A DNA stretch of 63,535 bases, filler included. It is 15 parts of 15 records of this genome, joined end to end, with 100 filler letters (N's around TTAATTAATTAA, not from the genome) between each part and the next. Parts side by side here need not be neighbours in the genome. Positions count along the whole stretch, not along the records: positions 41,337 to 44,395 come from SRR7504441_18182; 14 more parts are not named here. One strand, given 5' to 3'. Positions 11,999 to 47,611 of this stretch are shown one piece after another; within the stretch, counting starts at the first letter, position 1; each line of letters begins with the position of its first letter. A program made the position numbers and the translations under genes. The notes below the pieces were generated by a model that saw nothing but the letters and a program-made list of their open reading frames with translations, did not search any database and was not told the origin of the DNA.

Positions 11999-12324
11999 NN
12001 NNNNNNNNNNNNNNNNNNNNNNNNNNNNNNNNNNNNNNNNNNTTAATTAATTAANNNNNNNNNNNNNNNNNNNNNNNNNNNNNNNNNNNNNNNNNNNNAC
12101 ACATATTAATAAACAATACCTTCCTTTTAATTTATGAAAGGTGATCAATCTTACATTGTTGAATCTTGAGCTCTTGTTCTGCTATTCTTCTTCTCTCTTT
12201 ATTATGTAGAGATACAATTCATGTACAATAGCGCTAGCTACTGTAGATCTAGCGCTACGAGCACCTACAGAGTACGCATATACCGGTGAAATGGCTGAGA
12301 TGGCTGAAAACTGAGAGGTTTGCG

Positions 12325-15300
12325 ATGTCTGACCCGGCGGTTTCAGCGGGACAGTCTGTGTGCGCAGTAAAGGTTTACACTCGGGTTCGGCCGCCCAGTG
12401 ACATCGAACGGAGCAACGAGCAGCTCGCTGGGCCGTCTGACTTCGGCGAAAGCATCGAACTCGGTGACAATTTCGTAACTGCACTCAGTGGAACCACCTC
12501 ACCTCGTACGTACACGTTCGACGGGGTGCTACTTCCGGGAGCCAGCCAGCAGGATGTCTATCGGACTATCGCTAATGACTTCATTGAGGACGTGGTCGAC
12601 GGGTACAACGCCACTATCTTCGCCTACGGCCAAACTGGCGCTGGTAACCCTCTGCTGAAATTTGATGTCGTTGTGGCTGAAGGTGCGTGGGTGCAGGTAA
12701 GAGCTTTACGATGTTCGGGCCGCCAGACCTCGAGCGTTTCGACGACCATCGGGTGCGATGCTTGACTGCGCAGTGCGTGAGCAAGGGTGCGCAGGCTGGG
12801 CTGGTGCCTCGGGCGCTATACGACTTATTCAGTAAGCTGAATGTAGTACAGCGCCAAAGATTACTGGTGGAGCACGAGTACAAGGTCAGTGTATCGTACC
12901 TGCAAATCTACCAGGAGGCTGTGCAAGATCTGCTCAAGCCAAAAAATGTCAACCTTCGTGTGCGTGAATCGCCGACAGACGGAGTCTATGTAGAAGGGCT
13001 GATGCAAGCTGTGGTGACCACAATGGAGCAAGCGCTCGAGTGGCTGCGGATGGGCGCCAAGAATCGGAACTTTGCCCAGACAGCGTGCAACGAAACCTCC
13101 TCGCGTAGCCACACCTTATTTATAGTGACCCTGACACAGCTCACCTCTGAGGGTTCCAAGCGACAATCCAAGTTGTGCCTAGCTGATCTAGCAGGCAGTG
13201 AGAAGGTAGTAGCCATAGCCTTGCTGGCTGGTGAGTGCTGCGAACAGGTCGGCAAATCGAAAGTAGAGGGAGAACAGTTTGTGGAGGCGCTCACCATCAA
13301 CCAGTCCCTCTCGGTGCCTCATGCATTTAGATCCGGCGAGCCATTATATGATCCAGGTCCTGGGTCATTGCATCCATGCTCTCACATCACGCAAGAGGGG
13401 AGCTTCTCATGTGCCCTACAGAGAGTCAAAGCTGACATTCATCTTGAAGGATTCGCTGGGAGGCAATTCAAAGACTGCCCTGATCTGTGCAGTCTCACCG
13501 CATCCATCACAATGGACCGAGACTGTATCCACATTGCAGTTCGCAGAGCGTGCCAAGATGATGAAGAATTCGGTCTCAGTGACAACAATCATGAGCCACA
13601 CAGCACTGGTAGCCACTGTGGAAAGACTGGAGGCTGAGCTCACTCGGTGTCACGCCCGGATTGCTGATCTGGAGAAGCAACTGGGGATAGCACCACAACA
13701 TGGGCATGCAAAGACACCACCAGCCCAAGCCCATCAGGCCTCTTTGGACTCGCAGGAGACTGCAGCAGCAGAAGGGGCTGCGCAAGAAGGCGACTTTGAC
13801 GAGGGTGAGCTGGAAAGTGCGCTTGAGATGGTCCATGCGGTCGGAACGCAGAATAAGGTGTGAATGAGCCAAACGAGAACTCACTGGTGATGGGCAGATG
13901 CTAGCAAATGAAGCAAGGGCAGCAGCACAGCTGCAAATGGAGGCAGACAAGCTAGCAGCGGCAGCCATGTCGCAAAACACCCTTCTGAAAGAGAGAATTG
14001 CTGAGTTGGAGAGCCAGGTGCGGATTCATTTTTGCTGTCATAATGTAATGGCTGTGCAGATAAGTGACGAGCAGGCACAAGCAGTAGCAGAGATGGCCAG
14101 AGATCATCACTCACTACAGCTCGCTTCGTCACAGGCGCTGGATGTGGCCAATGAGAAGCTCAAGGCCCAGACTGGGGAGCTAGAGAAGGTCATCGCCAAG
14201 TCACAAAGTGAGGCAGAGCATCAGCAGGCTGCTATCAAGCAGAGTAAGCAGCAGTGTAAGGGACTGGAGGCAAAGCTACTTGAACGTGAGGCTGAGCTGG
14301 CAGAGGCAAGGCAAGAGCTAGGACTAGTGCAGCAGGAGAGAGGACGCCTCTGCGTAGAGAAGGATAAGCTGGTTGAGCAGAAGGTATCACTAAAAGAGCA
14401 GCTCAACCAACAGTTGACACAAGGAAATGCAACCTCACATGAATCTACTGGTAATAACGATTGTGTGAGCCATTGTCGTAGCTGATTTAGTGTGAGCAGA
14501 TGAAAAGGCAATGAATCAGATTGGAGAGCTGCATCGACAGTTGGAGACTCAAAAAGTCCAGTTCAATGAGGATTTGCGACAGGCCAAGAAGGAAATGTCT
14601 AACCACTCGAAGACCAAGCTGGACAAGCTTCAGGTTGACAGTTTGCCATGGTAAAGCATAATGAGTTGGCAGAGCAAGATGGACACCCTGCAAAAGGAGA
14701 AGGACAAGGTGGCTGCTAGCCTGATGGAAGTGCAACAAGGTGCTGAAGGCCTTGAGGCCCAACTACAGGCAGCTGCTTGCACTGTGAGCAGATCTGTGGT
14801 AGCAGCGACATGTACTGAGAGCGTGCACAGGCCATCCAAGAATCGCAGCAAAGTGCAAATTTACTGCAAGAAACACAGTTGGCACTAGCTGATTCTGAGG
14901 CAAGAATGCATGTGATGGAACAGGAACGGTGCTTGTGATATACGTATCCAACTAGTGAGGTTGACACATTTTTGGCAAGGTGCAACACCATGTCAGAGCT
15001 CTCTGATAAGATGGAAGAACTAAATCAGGAGAAGCAAAAGATTCGAGAATTGAATGATGATAATGCAAATCTGCGCAACGAGTTGCTCCGTATGCGAAAG
15101 GTGGCAGGCCGCGACTTGGGGTTTTAACTGGTGCTCAGGTGGTGTCCAATGTGCTTGAAGAAAAGAAGCAGATGGCTGACACGCTGCTCGAGAAGGACGC
15201 TACGTCTGAGCAGATCGAGATGCTACGTCAAGAGACCACGTAACTACATCCACGTAGAACTGGAACATAGCTGAACTTGGTGTGTGGGCTGGAATCAGGC

Positions 15301-41335: not shown

Positions 41336-42128
41336 NTGCAGTGCGCCAGGTTGTGGCTGATGCTCGGCGGGCTGTGCTCGGCGGCCTGCATTCCACGATT
41401 CCCGTTCGTGGACCAGGACGGGGCCCAGGTCTCCCGCCAGGAGGAGGAGACCGGGCGCGGCTGCCGGCACTGGCCGTTCCGGGCGGCGGCGGCTTGGGCG
41501 CTCGAGCACGTGTCAGAGGCCTGCGCGGCCCGCCCGTGCCACAGGTGCTCGGGCAAGCCGCTGCACGCGCTCGTGGGCGGACTGGAGCAGGCACTTTACG
41601 CTGCGCGCAACATCGGGCAGGCCGACCCGGCGAGCGCAGAGGGTGTGGGGGCGGTGGAGCAGCAGCTGACCGGGCTGCAGCGCCGGCTGGCCGGGGGCGA
41701 GCAGTTGGACCTGGCTGGCTAGCCTGCAGGCGCTGGGCGAGCCTGGGCCAATGGTGGTCCAGAACAAATTCGACCTGTACCACCGGGGCGAGCAGGTGGC
41801 GCTGAAGCCGGCGGATGTGCCGCGCCAGATGAGCCAGCTCGGGGTGCTGATGGACTGCTACTCGCCGCTATCCGGCTGGCCGTACGCGGCTGCGCCTGTC
41901 AAGGACCCGCATGTGAAGGCGGTGGCTGATGAGCTAGGCTCGCAGCCAGGCACAGTGCTGGTGCGCTGGTTGCTCGAGCAGGGGATGGGCGTGATTGTGT
42001 CCAGCTCGAGCAGACGGCACCTGGACGAAGCCGTCGCCGCGCTGCAGCTGCGGCTGGCCAGCGAGCACGTGGAGCACCTGCAGGCTGGGATCAAGTCGCT
42101 GCTCCGCTCGCCGCTCAATGCTTCCTAG
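41336..42128 (+). CDS. Aldo/keto reductase-like protein, 5' truncated
   Basis: VVQNKF, YSPLSG, DPHVKAVADELG..PGTVLVRWLLEQGMGVI.SSS..HL. Confidence 0.65.
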
Positions 42129-42491
42129 TCAACTGGAATCAGAGCGAAGTGCTAAGCTTATTTACAGAGCCGCAAAGCGTGATAAGTCTAACCGACTCTA
42201 ACAAGTGTGCTTGGTCTAAATGACGAAGATTATCTCAAGTCTTGAAGTGCAGAAGTCACACCATCTAAGCGCGAGAGATTCTTAGGATTCATTGACAAGA
42301 CGAAATCATTGTCATAATGATGTAGAATCGCTCACATTCCAAGTAAATTGTTGAGCTGGTTCGCTGCAGTTGGTGCAGTTCAGCAGTTGGTCACGAGCTC
42401 AGTACTGTCATAACGTCGTCTGGGTCTCACTTGTTGACCGGTCAACAAGTCAGGGCCGGTTTTCCTGCGGCGCCCAGTCCAGATCTCCGCT

Positions 42492-44395
42492 ATGGCGGCC
42501 ACAGAAGAAGACCTGGAGCGGACCAAGCGCACCGAGAGCCTGGACCAGCTCTTCAGCAACTCCGAGTACAAGGCCAAGCAGGCCCTGATCGACAGGCACC
42601 TAGCTAGGGTCACCGCCGGCTCGCTGGTGGGGTACGCCGTCCTGGTCGCCGGCGCGTTCGCCCTCTCCCAAGGGAACCGCCGACTGCTCCCACAGACCGA
42701 GCGGGTGGCCGCGGCCGCGGCGTGCGGCGCATGCTTTGCGGCGGCCCTTTCGGGGCTGATCCGGCTCGGGCTCCAATCGACTCAGATGGGATCCACCTGG
42801 GTTCAGGTTGCGGTCACCTGCGTCCACGGAGTGGCCGCCTGCACCAACCTGATGCTCTGGATGCTCCCAATGCCGGTGGTGAACAACCCGTTCACCGGCT
42901 GCCAAGTCTACATCCTCCGCTGGTGCGAGTGGACCATGTGCGTGCCTCCTAGGGTTAAAACCACCGGGCTAGACTCACCGGGCCGGCCAGCCTCTCCTTC
43001 CTGATGCAATTCCTGATCGAGAGCGTCCAGCTGCCCGAGCGCTACTCGCTCCGTGGGGCACTTGAGTGGGCTGGCGTCATGTGCGGGAGCACGGTGTGCG
43101 GGCTCTTCTTCCCGTTCCTGCCAAACTGGACAAGCTTCATTGTGGTCCTCTCCATCTCCTGCTGGCTCTACCTGCTCATGTTCCCGCGGCTGGCCCGGCT
43201 CAGGATGGAGGTCCACCGAGGGAACGACCGGCGGCTGCAGGTAGCGTACCGGCTGCAGCTCACCTGCGCTTTCACTTGGAGCCTGTTCGTGATCAACTGG
43301 TTTGGGCAGTGGCTAATGCAAGCCATGAGCCCCGGCGAATACTTCCACTGGCCCTTCCTGTCGGAGGCCTTGATCGACGTCTGCGCCAAGGTGCTGTATG
43401 CCAGCGCGATCGAAGGTTTGGATCGCGAGACGCACCAGAATGAGCGGGAGGCACACCAGACCAACATCCAGGGATTGATGACGTCGATCTGGACTCTCTG
43501 TGGGGACATCTTCGTCGTGGCCCATGAGCGCGAGCGGGAGCACAGCCCAATGACCATCTCGCCCGCGGTTAAGCCGATGCTCGGCTGCTCTGAGTGTCTT
43601 GAGTGCGACAACGACTGGCTTGGGTGCACTTGCAACACTGCGCGTGGGCTGGCTTCAAGCGGGTTACTCTCCGTGTACAAGTCGCTGTGGGCCAATGCCG
43701 ACCATGTGTACCGGATGTCGGAGCACATCCTCAAGCACGTCAAAGGGCACAATGTGCACACCGAGATTGGGGCGGCCAAGCATGAGACGCACGGAGGCAC
43801 ATGGATGGTTGCAGTGGTGAGAGATATTACTGACAGAGTGCAAAGGGCCGAGGTAGAGAAAAAGCTCGAGCTAACGGATCTGACCCGTACCAAGGATCTC
43901 GAGGCGGCCCGATTTGCTCGACATGAGATCAAAAACGGTGTGCTGCTTACTCGTGCGCGCAGGCTCACAGTTTGGTGTAGGCATCATCAATTCGATGAGT
44001 GTGCTGCAAGGCGTGCAGGAAATGGTGAGTGAAGGCATTTCGGACAACATGTTTGTTTCGCGCGAGTACGCCATGAATCTGGTTACCCACTGTAGGAACA
44101 CCAAAGAAGAGCTCGAGGACACCCTCAGCTCGGTACTCTGCGATGCGGCAGCGAGAGACCTTATCCATGACAATTACAACCCTCGGCGGGAGCCTCTATT
44201 TCTGCCGGACTTTCTCAAGAACATGTACAGCGGGCCGCAGTTTGTGTACGAGTTTGTGCCCCAGAACTTCCCGGTGCTGGCTTTGGACAAGTTCCTGATC
44301 AAGATTGCTGTGGCCAATGCCGTCTCAAACGGAGTCAAGTACGGCAAGCCAAACGGCAAGATTCGTATCCGAGCAGTGCACGAGCAGAAGGAGCT
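42492..44395 (+). CDS. Microbial (type-1) rhodopsin - PAS - histidine kinase, 3' truncated
   Basis: Eight hydrophobic segments; helix C YILRWCEWTILSFLM (intron 42938-42990), helix F WSLFVINW, helix G IDVCAKVLY; PAC end VAVVRDITDR; H-box RFARHEIKNG (intron 43938-43980); N-box ANAVSNGVKYG. Confidence 0.85.
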
Positions 44396-44495
44396 NNNNN
44401 NNNNNNNNNNNNNNNNNNNNNNNNNNNNNNNNNNNNNNNTTAATTAATTAANNNNNNNNNNNNNNNNNNNNNNNNNNNNNNNNNNNNNNNNNNNN

Positions 44496-45913
44496 GAGCT
44501 CGCTGAAAAGTCGACTTGGTGATCAATAAACGGAGATCGGTCCGTCTCCAGCTCGGAAGGAGTCGCGAGCTCGCCCGTCGAATGCAGAAACAGCGCATTC
44601 CAGCGGCCTGCCTCCGGTGGCCAGCTGCCATCTGAGGTGGACCTCCACTGATCAGGCCCCATGAGAAAGTAGTGCAAGGGCGGCTCCGACTCGGGAAGCA
44701 GGCTGCAGTCGTCCTTGAGCTTGCAATCCATGAACCTCTTCACGTCATGGAACAGCTCGTACTGCGGCACGGTCGATGCGGAGGATGGGGTGGCGCAGGA
44801 CCGGGCGCCGTGGCTCCAAGGCCCAAACGTGAGCTTGCTCTGGCCTGGCGGGAGCGACTGGTGGACCCTAAGCGCAGAACGAATCGAACCCGAGTCGAAA
44901 TAGCCTGCCACCGAGTACACGCTGACCTGGTGCTCCTTGAGCCCAAGATATGTGGCTTCAGTGATCCCGAGGTCTCCCATCGTGACGTTCGCTTCCGAGG
45001 TTTGAACAATAACGTCATCTTTGCACACAATGTTTGGATCACGCAGGGTGGATGCCATATCGAAGTTGTCTCGGTGCTCGGCGATGGCCTGCTCGAGCAG
45101 AGGCTCGTGCCCTTCGATTCCGTAAACCCCGTCCAGCAGCCAGCTGGAGACAAGCTTGAACAGCCAGGGCAGCTCGTTGTCTACATCACTCACAGGCATG
45201 TTCCGTTCGCTTGCCGCGGTGAATTTGCCATACATATCGACAAAGCCGTTGCAGAACACCCCTCCAGGAGCCACCAGGTCCTCATACAGGTCGCCGGGCG
45301 CAAACAGCAACACGGCCGCCTGGACACCTCCTCGTGCGGCCATCAGCGCCCCGGCGATTCCATCATACGAGATCCCGCCAGTCCCAATCCGTCCGTTGCA
45401 AAAGCTCTGTTGGGCCACCCATTGGCGGATCTCCGCGTAGTCTTCCACCTCCCTCTCCACGAGGTCGACGGGCCGGGAGCCGAACGAGGCTCCCGTCCCG
45501 CGCACATCCACAGAGACGAACGCATACCCGGCGGGCACGAATAGCTTGAGGTAGTGCAACGAGCGCATTGGGAAGCTGGCCGAGGGCGAGTCCCCGAATA
45601 GCGGAATATAACGGCTGAACCAGCTCCGCTTCTCGCTCCTGTGGTATCGGGTGAGGTGAAGGAAGGTGGGCAGCGGCGGGTCGTCGGGCGAGTGTCCCGC
45701 CGGCAGGTAAATGTCCACCGCGAGCCGGACGCCATCGCTCATCGTCACGTACTGAGAGCTGCGCTGGGCCGGGGGCGCCGGCGGGGCCGGATGCACCGAG
45801 AAGAAGTTGGCGTCGGTGCAGCGCTCGTCCGGAAGGATCCGCTTGACCCCCAAGGCCACAATCACCGCCACCAAGACCCCGAGCCCGGCGGCTGTGCAGT
45901 AGCCGCGTGCCAT
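44496..45913 (-). CDS. CocE/NonD family hydrolase (peptidase S15), 3' truncated
   Basis: YVTMSDGVRLAVDIYLP, TRY, VDVRGTGASFG, GRIGTGGISYDG, GPWSHG. Confidence 0.9.
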
Positions 45914-46003
45914 CCCAGTGCGTTGGACAACCTGACAGCGGTGGTCTCCGGGACTGTGGGCCACCTCTTCGGGCCGTGCCGACGGTCGCAGCAACGGCAT
46001 TCG

Positions 46004-47611
46004 ATGGTGGGCCGAGCTCTCGTAGTTGGCTTGGCGGGGCTGCTCCAGCTCTCGAGTTGCCTGGACAACGGGCTCGGGCTCACGCCCCCGATGGCCTGGT
46101 CCAGCTGGAACTGCTTCGCCCTCGGGGCCAACGAGTCTGGCGTGCTGGCCAACGCCAGAGCTCTGATCAGCTCCGGCCTGGCCGGCGTGGGTTATCAGTA
46201 CGTCAACATCGACGCTGGGTACCTGGCCGGGCGGGACAGCGCAGGCAAGCTGGTGGTGAATGCCGGGCGGTACCCCTCGGGGATCAACAACCTGTCCGAC
46301 TCGCTGCACGCGATGAAGCTCAAGCTGGGCGTGTACACCGACCTGTCGGGGCACACCTGTGGCAACGGGCCCGGGACGGGCTCCAAGGGGCACTACGAGC
46401 TGGACGCCCAGACCTTCGCCGGCTGGGGGGCCGATTATCTGAAAGTTGACTTCTGTGGGGCCGGCAACGCCAGCCTGGACCCGCGGGACATTAGCCCAGA
46501 CCCGGCGGTGCAGTACGCCGCGTGGTCGCAGCTCCGGGACGCGATCAACAAGACCGGGCGTCCGATCTACTTCTCGATCTGCCCGCATACCAAGGGCGAC
46601 GGCTGGGCGAGCAACAAGCAGTGGCCGCTGTGGTACGCGCCGCCAGCCGCATGGTCAACCGAGCAGCGGCATGCGCTGGCCAACTCGCTGCTCGTGGAGT
46701 ATTCAAACACAGCCGACACCTGGCTGGGCGGGCCGGAGGGCGGCGTGATGTCCAACCTGGACTCGATGCTCCACGCCACCAAGCTCGAGTACTCGGTCCC
46801 TGGATCTTGGAACGACGCTGACATGCTACAAGTCTGTAACTACGGCAAGGGCAAGACCCCGGGCGATGGGATGACCCTCAGCGAGTACCGGGCCCACTAC
46901 AGTGCCTGGGCGATACTGGCCTCCCCGCTGATCCTCGGGGTGGACCTGACCACGCTAGCAGCTGATCACCCGGAGTGCCTGGAGATGCTGCTCAACAAGC
47001 AGATAGTGGCTGTGAATCAAGATCCGCTGGGCGCCCCGGGCCGACTGGTGTGGCAGACTCCGCCGATGAGCCCGAGCTTGACCTCTGTGGAGATCACGGC
47101 TCAGGTCTTAGCACGGCCACTCTCGAACGATCGGTTGGCGGTGTTGCTGCTCAATAGAGGCAGCCAGGCGAGCAATCTGACAGTTACGTGGTCCGAGCTT
47201 GGGCTGCCTGCCGGCACCCGGAACGTGTATGACGTGATTGCACAGAAGGCTGCAGGCGTTGCATCTGGCAGCTTCACAGCGCTGGTTGATTCGCACGATG
47301 TAAGCTTCATTATTTTGAGTGGGTTGTGCCAAGCGCCCACGCCACTGGCAAAGGAGGCGCCGAATGTGATGCTGATCGGCGACAGCATTTCGATGGGGCC
47401 GACTGGCTACTCGCTCTTTGTGCAGGATATCCTGCAGACTGCCACAGATGGCGCGCTCGTCGGCTCGCTGCAGCACGGCGGAGGATTCGACTGGGCTGGC
47501 CAGATGGCCTCGTCTACCAACGGAGCATCCAAAGTGGTGGCGTGTATGGGTAACTGCTCCGGGCAGCTGCCAAGCAAGGCTTGGTCCGTGGTGACGTACA
47601 ATGCCGGGCTG
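46004..47611 (+). CDS. Secreted alpha-galactosidase (GH27) with C-terminal SGNH/GDSL esterase domain, 3' truncated
   Basis: LDNGLGLTPPMAWSSWN, YVNID, WGADYLKVDFC, WNDADML, AVNQDPLG; then VMLIGDSIS...YNAGL (SGNH blocks I and III). Confidence 0.9.

Follow-up and report, generated by a model that had tools for sequence, protein, structure and literature searches.

The stretch of DNA analysed here (the window; 63,535 nucleotides, filler included) is composed of 15 separate contigs of 3–8 kb each, which are joined by N44-TTAATTAATTAA-N44 spacers at 14 linker sites lying between 4047 and 59301. Because the contigs were joined artificially, adjacency across a spacer is meaningless, and contig ends often cut genes. 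One of these contigs, at positions 41337–44395 (3059 bp), harbors the gene that is the subject of this work, in which a rhodopsin and a histidine kinase are carried in one spliced frame. Positions 42492–44395 represent the 5′ 602 codons of this eukaryotic gene, which starts with an ATG at 42492 and whose spliced frame is free of stop codons. Its product, of which the window covers the N-terminal 602 residues, is probably an enzyme rhodopsin that binds retinal and has a two-component histidine kinase as its output. As the contig end at 44395 cuts the gene (the N-linker begins at 44396), the G1 and G2 boxes of the kinase and everything further downstream are missing from the window.

The frame opened by the ATG at 42492 shifts twice, and both shifts are introns. 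Exon 1 (42492–42937, plus strand, as are all features of the gene described below) encodes the N-terminal cytosolic helix, the transmembrane (TM) helices TM0, A and B, the beta hairpin between B and C, and the first half of helix C. It ends with ...RWCEWT plus two nucleotides, and both its start and its sequence are collinear with those of the orthologs P0004 and P0005, the latter (722 residues) being drawn from a catalogue of marine eukaryote transcripts. Intron 1 (42938–42990; 53 nucleotides, GT..AG, phase 2) is located within helix C, and its removal joins RWCEWT-I-LSF; at the same point, P0004 and P0005 are uninterrupted and read RWCEWTVLSF. Exon 2 (42991–43937) completes helix C and continues through helices D–G, including the predicted Schiff-base Lys, and the long extension of helix G to the PAS-like domain and the first helix of the DHp, which bears the H-box; it is 57% identical to P0005 across 100% of the exon. 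Intron 2 (43938–43980; 43 nucleotides, GT..AG, phase 1) follows right after RHEIKN and joins G-IINS, at a point where P0005 runs without interruption through RHEIKNGIINS. Finally, exon 3 (43981–44395), which is cut by the contig end, contains the remaining DHp four-helix-bundle region and the ATP-binding (CA) domain from its start to just beyond the N-box, and shows 65% identity to residues 475–613 of P0005 (tblastn). The assignment of helices and domains to exons was taken from the structural model of P0005, not of the window protein. Along the spliced window protein, identity with P0005 amounts to 58.7% (349 of 595 aligned positions), and when P0005, P0008 and P0006 were compared with the window by tblastn, this locus was the sole match.

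RNA evidence was provided by contigs from marine metatranscriptome libraries of four runs, which leave positions 41337–42560 without coverage. The joint of intron 1 (42937 to 42991) is present in one RNA-library contig of run X4, with 155 nucleotides on the shorter side, and that of intron 2 (43936/7 to 43980/1) in one RNA contig each of runs X1 and X4, both from the same study. Furthermore, wherever the RNA contigs depart from the window sequence, at 24 positions, the change is synonymous and falls on a third codon position. The gene is transcribed, spliced and under purifying selection. A frameshift or a pseudogene was also considered for the two frame changes, and was rejected on account of the spliced joints in the RNA contigs and the synonymous-only variation.

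A further RNA contig of run X4 fits the window at 42992–43027 only, and its upstream part encodes YIMRWCEWTV, that is, an ortholog of the P0005 type; therefore, the gene was expressed in one sample by two or more related species or strains. The introns of 53 and 43 nucleotides, bounded by GT..AG, are very short, in a genome of approximately 60% G+C, which is a possible clue to the lineage. A scan of metagenome contigs with exon 2 yielded 27 pattern matches, none of which was confirmed, and gave no extension of the contig.

Rhodopsin homology of the membrane domain

Relatives of the protein were retrieved by an exhaustive HMMER search with P0005, which gave 483 representatives at E ≤0.001, 319 at 1e-10 and 99 at 1e-30. 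Among the 150 matches listed, 86 were recovered with the membrane part on its own, for which there were 89 hits, three of them being the query and the pieces of the window; many of the others are C-terminal fragments. Conservation was evaluated in a set of 69 rows, i.e., P0005 and 68 relatives spanning the whole membrane domain, from which partial sequences, P0004 (with a retained intron), P0017 and the window pieces had been dropped; the Pfam scan of the family covered 48 of these 69 relatives. Word-index protein searches returned two orthologs only, to which the family profile added one unrelated PAS protein.

With regard to sequence profiles, the Pfam scan of the window exons gave no match to Bac_rhodopsin. 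The same model reached E values of 0.014 and 0.38 on the two orthologs, and was found in a single one of the 48 relatives (E 0.0029, 17.5 bits). A phmmer search of the sequences in the PDB with P0005 gave only the rhodopsin phosphodiesterase (Rh-PDE), at E 0.11. When the profile of the 69 full-length sequences was employed, the best match was bestrhodopsin (7pl9; E 7.5e-10, in both of its tandem rhodopsin domains), followed by Rh-PDE (7cj3/7d7q; E 1.5e-7), with other solved rhodopsins appearing only at E 0.4–7.

Structural models were built with AlphaFold for the ortholog P0005 (59% identical to the window protein), the full-length one with the 69-row alignment. The full-length model had a pLDDT of 87.8, and that of residues 1–324 a pLDDT of 91.3 and a pTM of 0.88. 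In the membrane model, a long N-terminal helix ending in TM0 is followed by helices A and B, a B-C beta hairpin, helices C–F and helix G. The N-terminal helix (residues 14–59), which precedes helix A, contains TM0, which brings the TM helices to eight, and helix G is unbroken over approximately 50 residues (272–321/323) and runs into the cytosol in both P0005 models. A Foldseek search of the PDB with the membrane model gave microbial rhodopsins in 49 of the 49 matches listed, with Rh-PDE in ranks 1–4 and 146 matches at E ≤0.001. Superposition with VIA-align pointed in the same direction, with Z scores of 21–26 over 214–282 residues: chain 7d7q_B scored Z 26.3 (root-mean-square deviation 3.2 over 282 residues, model residues 30–324, TM0 and linker helix included), 7cj3_B 25.8, sensory rhodopsin II 22.5 and bacteriorhodopsin about 21.5. 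As a lead only, the nearest clusters by ESM Atlas language-model features were Bac_rhodopsin families (0.81). A homodimer prediction for the membrane part scored 0.00, which gives no verdict either way.

Judged by the profile matches to solved eight-TM rhodopsins (E 7.5e-10 and 1.5e-7) and by fold searches that gave rhodopsins only, the TM domain is a genuine microbial-rhodopsin homolog. Its architecture, as predicted for the ortholog, is the eight-helix one of the rhodopsin phosphodiesterase, with TM0, helices A–G and a long cytosolic continuation of helix G, so that both ends lie in the cytosol. This is in line with an earlier note on this DNA, made from the letters alone, in which seven opsin-like helices plus an extra N-terminal helix had been described: the ortholog model has eight helices, and the extra one superposes on the TM0 of enzyme rhodopsins. 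The comparison with rhodopsin profiles proposed there gave significant matches to bestrhodopsin and Rh-PDE, and where a non-opsin predicted fold would have spoken against the idea, the model matches microbial rhodopsins instead.

The residues expected around a retinal chromophore were examined in the translation. Helix C contains R143-W-C-E146-W147 (RWCEW; 42918–42932). Helix F reads W245-S-L-F248-V-I-N-W252, without Pro (43277–43300), where the codon at 43277–43279 specifies a putative retinal-sandwich Trp. Helix G contains D278-V-C-A-K282 (DVCAK; 43376–43390), with a predicted second counter-ion Asp and the predicted Schiff-base Lys, encoded by AAG at 43388–43390. By motif position, we take R143, E146 and W147 to be the counterparts of bacteriorhodopsin R82, D85 (Glu here) and W86. 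In the 69 relatives, the Arg of helix C was conserved in 68, the Glu in 66 and the Trp in 65, with Phe in the remaining 4. The first Trp of the helix F motif was invariant (69/69), while the next key position was occupied by Leu (55), Phe (11) or Ile (3), and the last one by Tyr (40), Phe (16) or Trp (8). In helix G, the Lys was likewise present in 69/69, and the carboxylate position held Asp in 49, Glu in 17 and Asn in 3 (Asp or Glu in 66/69).

The earlier note had read these three motifs in the same form, with RWCEW placing a Glu at the D85 position, a WxxFxxxW helix F lacking the Pro, and the Lys codon at 43388–43390, and had remarked on the lack of a TTP motif after helix C, where the family has Leu-Ser/Ala-Phe; all of this was recovered. 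Its view of the Glu counter-ion as atypical did not hold. In the HMMER motif alignments, RWCEW is matched by RYAEW in Rh-PDE and by RYMEW in bestrhodopsin, the two solved relatives closest to the family, and a Glu at this position is therefore normal for the eight-helix branch.

Leu occupies the positions of bacteriorhodopsin T89 and D96 in the family, and the absence of these pump-residue counterparts would fit a sensor rather than a pump. Far-red pigments of the NeoR type carry a carboxylate at the T89 position, where this family has Leu. A pigment of this type was considered here and found to be unsupported, the T89-position residue not being a carboxylate (the NeoR triad being taken from a published abstract).

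A different interpretation of the membrane domain is that of a rhodopsin-fold sensor, derived from a rhodopsin, that no longer uses retinal and responds instead to a small molecule, a lipid, some property of the membrane or an input taken up by the PAS-like domain, with the Lys being kept for structural or other chemical reasons. Such a sensor would be consistent with the diverged pocket, in which counterparts of T89, P91 and P186 are missing, with the scores of Pfam Bac_rhodopsin, below cut-off in all members tested, and with the presence, between opsin and kinase, of a PAS-like domain that could bind a ligand of its own. However, the Lys in 69/69, the helix F Trp in 69/69 and the Arg, Glu and Trp of helix C in 65–68 of 69 form the pattern expected of a working chromophore site, and retinal-free opsin relatives usually lose the Lys. 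Moreover, the closest solved relatives, Rh-PDE and bestrhodopsin, are titled as rhodopsins. We consider a sensor of this kind unlikely, and retinal binding by the membrane domain is the reading followed below.

The PAS-like domain and the histidine kinase

Downstream of helix G, a PAS-like alpha/beta domain was located at 43508–43825 (window residues ~322–427, with limits from the ortholog model). In the P0005 model, residues 325–437 form a five-stranded antiparallel sheet with flanking helices, as assigned by DSSP, N-terminal to the DHp. No Pfam PAS family matched the window exons, P0004, P0005 or any of the 48 relatives, so that membership of the PAS class is based on the predicted fold. A Cys-rich loop (C-x2-C-x-C ... 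C-x-C; 43586–43660, residues ~348–372) was observed in the PAS-like domain of the window protein. Apparently peculiar to this species, it is absent from P0005, and the ortholog stretch that matches it was modelled with low confidence (pLDDT ~52–60).

The DHp of the P0005 model consists of two long helices (439–495 and 502–536), after which comes an alpha/beta ATP-binding domain. With the full model, the best Foldseek matches were WalK, the SB2F1 chimeras of LOV-histidine kinases, YF1 (4gcz) and the Brucella LOV-PAS-histidine kinase, over approximately 410 columns and with E values of 1e-10 to 1e-14; these PAS/LOV-kinases ranked ahead of kinases consisting of DHp and CA only, HK853 among them. 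The family profile matched the LOV-PAS-histidine kinase 6ph4 at E 0.019. The putative phospho-accepting His460 (43922–43924) belongs to the H-box RFARHEIKNG, on the model helix 439–495, and of the 66 family rows that are not gapped at this position, 64 have a His. The N-box reads NAVSNGVKYG (44316–44345), with the codon at 44328–44330 specifying an Asn that is retained in 58 of the 61 family members whose sequence covers it. Among the relatives, the G2 box G-D-G was found in 55 of 56. HATPase_c was detected in 27 of the 48 relatives, in 5 of them above the Pfam cut-off.

A PAS domain, a coiled coil, HisKA and the N-box of a HATPase had been claimed to follow the opsin directly. The order as such is borne out by the predicted fold, by the relatives and by the RHEIKNG and NAVSNGVKYG motifs, but not by Pfam, which calls none of these domains, HATPase_c reaching only E 0.18 on the window piece (exon 3).

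As HisKA is never called and the G1 box is odd, the catalytic competence of the kinase is not certain. The kinase part could be a pseudokinase, or act as a phosphatase or scaffold only, in which case light would not drive a phosphorelay. An N-x-P-G sequence at G1 in 56/60 relatives, where D-x-G-x-G is expected, is compatible with this, as are the failure of Pfam to call HisKA and the HATPase_c scores, mostly below cut-off. Against it stand three conserved features, namely the His of the H-box (64/66), the Asn of the N-box (58/61) and G-D-G at G2 (55/56), and the predicted structure, which superposes on active kinases such as HK853, WalK and YF1. A kinase part of this kind appears very unlikely to us.

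Longer relatives of approximately 1000–1260 amino acids continue beyond the kinase with a stretch that shows a consensus DD...D...S...K pattern, and the C-terminus of P0005 reads ...IVAFIDDAAVQ. No receiver was called by Pfam Response_reg in the 48 relatives, and none was found in the PDB profile search. Language-model features of residues 775–940 of the Diacronema member lie near Response_reg clusters (0.89; a lead only), and UniRef annotates one of the relatives as 'HPt domain-containing protein', with a Pfam Hpt E value of 0.061. Neither a phosphodiesterase nor a cyclase family was found by Pfam among the 48 relatives; in the window gene, the 3′ end is missing.

Comparison with known systems and proposed mechanism

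The protein is probably an enzyme rhodopsin with a kinase output, which is a known kind of protein, and its family is both sizeable and invisible to the databases. From its sequence and predicted fold, we infer that it binds retinal and is controlled by light. Several points weigh against a retinal-binding rhodopsin that commands a histidine kinase. The binding, the colour and the light regulation are all inferred, and the fold was predicted for the ortholog rather than for the window protein. Pfam Bac_rhodopsin (PF01036) remained below cut-off in every member tested (17.5 bits at best, against 24.6). The pocket is unlike that of classical rhodopsins, with no Thr-Thr/Cys-Pro after the helix C Trp, a helix F without Pro, and Phe or Leu at the Tyr185 position. 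On the kinase side, Pfam HisKA was never called, either on the window exons or in the 48 relatives, and the G1 box reads V-I-N-x-P-G (Asn in 56/60; P0005 residues 615–624) instead of D-x-G-x-G. Finally, the window, in which the contig ends at the N-box, is without G1, G2 and any receiver.

The best structural match among known systems is Rh-PDE of Salpingoeca rosetta (7cj3, 7d7q), which has TM0 and the helix connecting helix G with the linker in common with this family. The two also share Arg-aromatic-x-Glu-Trp in helix C and a cytosolic enzyme on a helical linker. They differ in their output, a phosphodiesterase in Rh-PDE and a PAS-histidine kinase here, and in the residues after the helix C Trp, which are Thr-Cys-Pro in Rh-PDE as opposed to Leu-Ser/Ala-Phe; sequence identity of Rh-PDE with the membrane model is approximately 15–16%. 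Bestrhodopsin (7pl9), a rhodopsin-bestrophin fusion from marine algae including haptophytes, is the best profile match and carries Arg-Tyr-Met-Glu-Trp in helix C. Unlike this family, it combines tandem rhodopsins with an ion channel and has no kinase.

The histidine-kinase rhodopsins (HKRs) of green algae, i.e., Chlamydomonas HKR1/Cop5, Cop6/2c-Cyclop and Ostreococcus Ot-HKR, also have a microbial rhodopsin N-terminal to a hybrid histidine kinase (PMC12558739, PMC7693036). The window protein could be a diverged member of these characterised HKRs (green-algal HKR or Ot-HKR clades) and no new class, given the shared order of rhodopsin, histidine kinase and, probably, receiver. The family could also be among the 17 uncharacterised rhodopsin clusters that a 2026 survey reports alongside canonical and noncanonical HKR clusters (PMC13739731). 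However, in this family a PAS-like domain is interposed between opsin and kinase, and no cyclase was found in the parts available, whereas the parts of Cop5 named in PMC7693036 are HisK, RR, Cyc, SMC_N and SAM, 'PAS' appearing in a word search of the text of that article only as an author name. The hosts identified here are diatoms, haptophytes and the marine protist of the window, with the named members being diatoms and haptophytes, not green algae. In addition, Pfam recognises neither the opsin nor HisKA in this family, and bestrhodopsin and Rh-PDE were the sole significant sequence matches among solved chains. The family is set apart from the green-algal HKRs here by domain order, hosts and sequence matches. 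Membership of the characterised HKRs seems to us quite improbable.

Concerning the cytosolic part, LOV-histidine kinases (YF1, 4gcz; SB2F1, 8a3u/8a52; Brucella, 6ph4) align with the PAS, coiled-coil DHp and CA regions over approximately 410 columns, with Foldseek E values of 1e-11 to 1e-12, and, by analogy, the passage of the signal from the PAS core to the DHp coiled coil is likely the same. LOV-histidine kinases bind flavin, whereas the PAS-like stretch of the window is without an NCRFL-type motif, and the light sensor would be the upstream membrane rhodopsin.

Based on a retinal-binding enzyme rhodopsin with kinase output, the following mechanism can be proposed. All-trans retinal would form a protonated Schiff base with K282; E146 and D278 would serve as counter-ions, and R143, W147, W245 and W252 would surround the retinal. 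Isomerisation of the retinal by light would move helix G, and this movement would be passed on through the cytosolic extension of helix G to the PAS-like core and, from there, as in LOV-histidine kinases, to the coiled coil that the DHp forms in a dimer. The resulting change in the DHp would switch the autophosphorylation of H460 on or off; in green-algal HKRs, light inhibits the kinase, according to a review (PMC12558739). The phosphate would then be transferred to a receiver-like domain beyond the contig end, as may be present in the longer relatives.

Hosts, genomic surroundings and significance

The relatives are mostly nameless proteins from metagenomes and transcriptomes. Members with a named host come from the diatoms Corethron hystrix (annotated as 'Uncharacterized protein') and Rhizosolenia setigera and from the haptophytes Chrysotila/Pleurochrysis carterae and Diacronema lutheri ('hypothetical protein'). 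A quick midpoint-rooted FastTree was built for the membrane domain from 70 rows, without an outgroup. P0005 is the partner of the window protein in this tree, in the half that holds the haptophyte sequences, and this pair lies apart from a large block with two diatom-named clusters.

Elsewhere in the window, eukaryotic nuclear domains were detected, namely bromodomain, zf-CW/PHD, kinesin, PTPLA, Sel1, DDT and alpha-galactosidase, in a domain scan of 50 of the 87 open reading frames of at least 170 amino acids. The remark that the window has no photosynthesis genes is sustained for these 50 long frames; as a statement about the organism it carries little weight, since 63 kb says little about it. 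The nearest neighbour, upstream on the same contig, is the 3′ end of an aldo/keto reductase gene (41670–42128, plus strand; Pfam Aldo_ket_red E 7.7e-9), which is separated from the rhodopsin-kinase gene by an intergenic region (42129–42491) and is not part of the system. On the next contig, an S15/CocE-type hydrolase (44498–45934, minus strand; Peptidase_S15 E 2e-36) and an alpha-galactosidase (45962–47611, plus strand; Melibiase_2 and Melibiase_C) are divergently oriented, and their long stop-free frames overlap on opposite strands, as is common in G+C-rich DNA. A kinesin motor (12253–13860, plus strand) is split over three stop-free frames (Pfam Kinesin E 3e-44, 5e-24 and 4e-15), which probably represent exons of a single gene.

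With regard to previous reports, no description of a rhodopsin-PAS-histidine kinase from diatoms, haptophytes or other non-green protists was found in the literature searched, which consisted in part of incomplete texts and lay outside the supplements of PMC13739731 and PMC8017926. Likewise, the accession numbers of the named family members gave no literature match, and the lists of diatom and haptophyte photoreceptors in that literature, as far as their available text goes, included no rhodopsin-kinase. In an open-ocean metatranscriptome, rhodopsin-histidine kinase transcripts were reportedly undetected (PMC8017926), and a eukaryote-wide census of histidine kinases used the HisKA and HATPase_c models (PMC6324907). 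Pfam-based surveys would miss the family, because these models mostly fail on its members. The earlier note had spoken of a separate, largely uncharacterised class of photosensor, and this description fits, as Pfam misses the family, which is large, and the literature searches found no account of it.

A more far-reaching view, which we advance only tentatively, is that rhodopsin-PAS-histidine kinases form a separate and old class of enzyme rhodopsins, nearer to bestrhodopsins and Rh-PDE than to the green-algal HKRs, and that the fusion of rhodopsin and kinase therefore arose independently. In this view, diatoms, haptophytes and one or more further lineages of protists, possibly including a predator without plastids, might rely on them as a main sensory photoreceptor based on retinal, and the PAS-like domain might let a second cue gate the light signal.

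Much of the primary production of the oceans is due to diatoms and haptophytes. Should retinal binding by the family prove correct, two-component signalling in major groups of plankton would have a light input that has so far gone unrecognised. Optogenetics would gain a histidine kinase that is switched by light in nature, and the passage of a signal from an eight-helix rhodopsin through a PAS domain into a coiled coil could be studied on it. The N-x-P-G sequence of the G1 box is, moreover, an oddity of the kinase throughout the family, which may bear on nucleotide binding.

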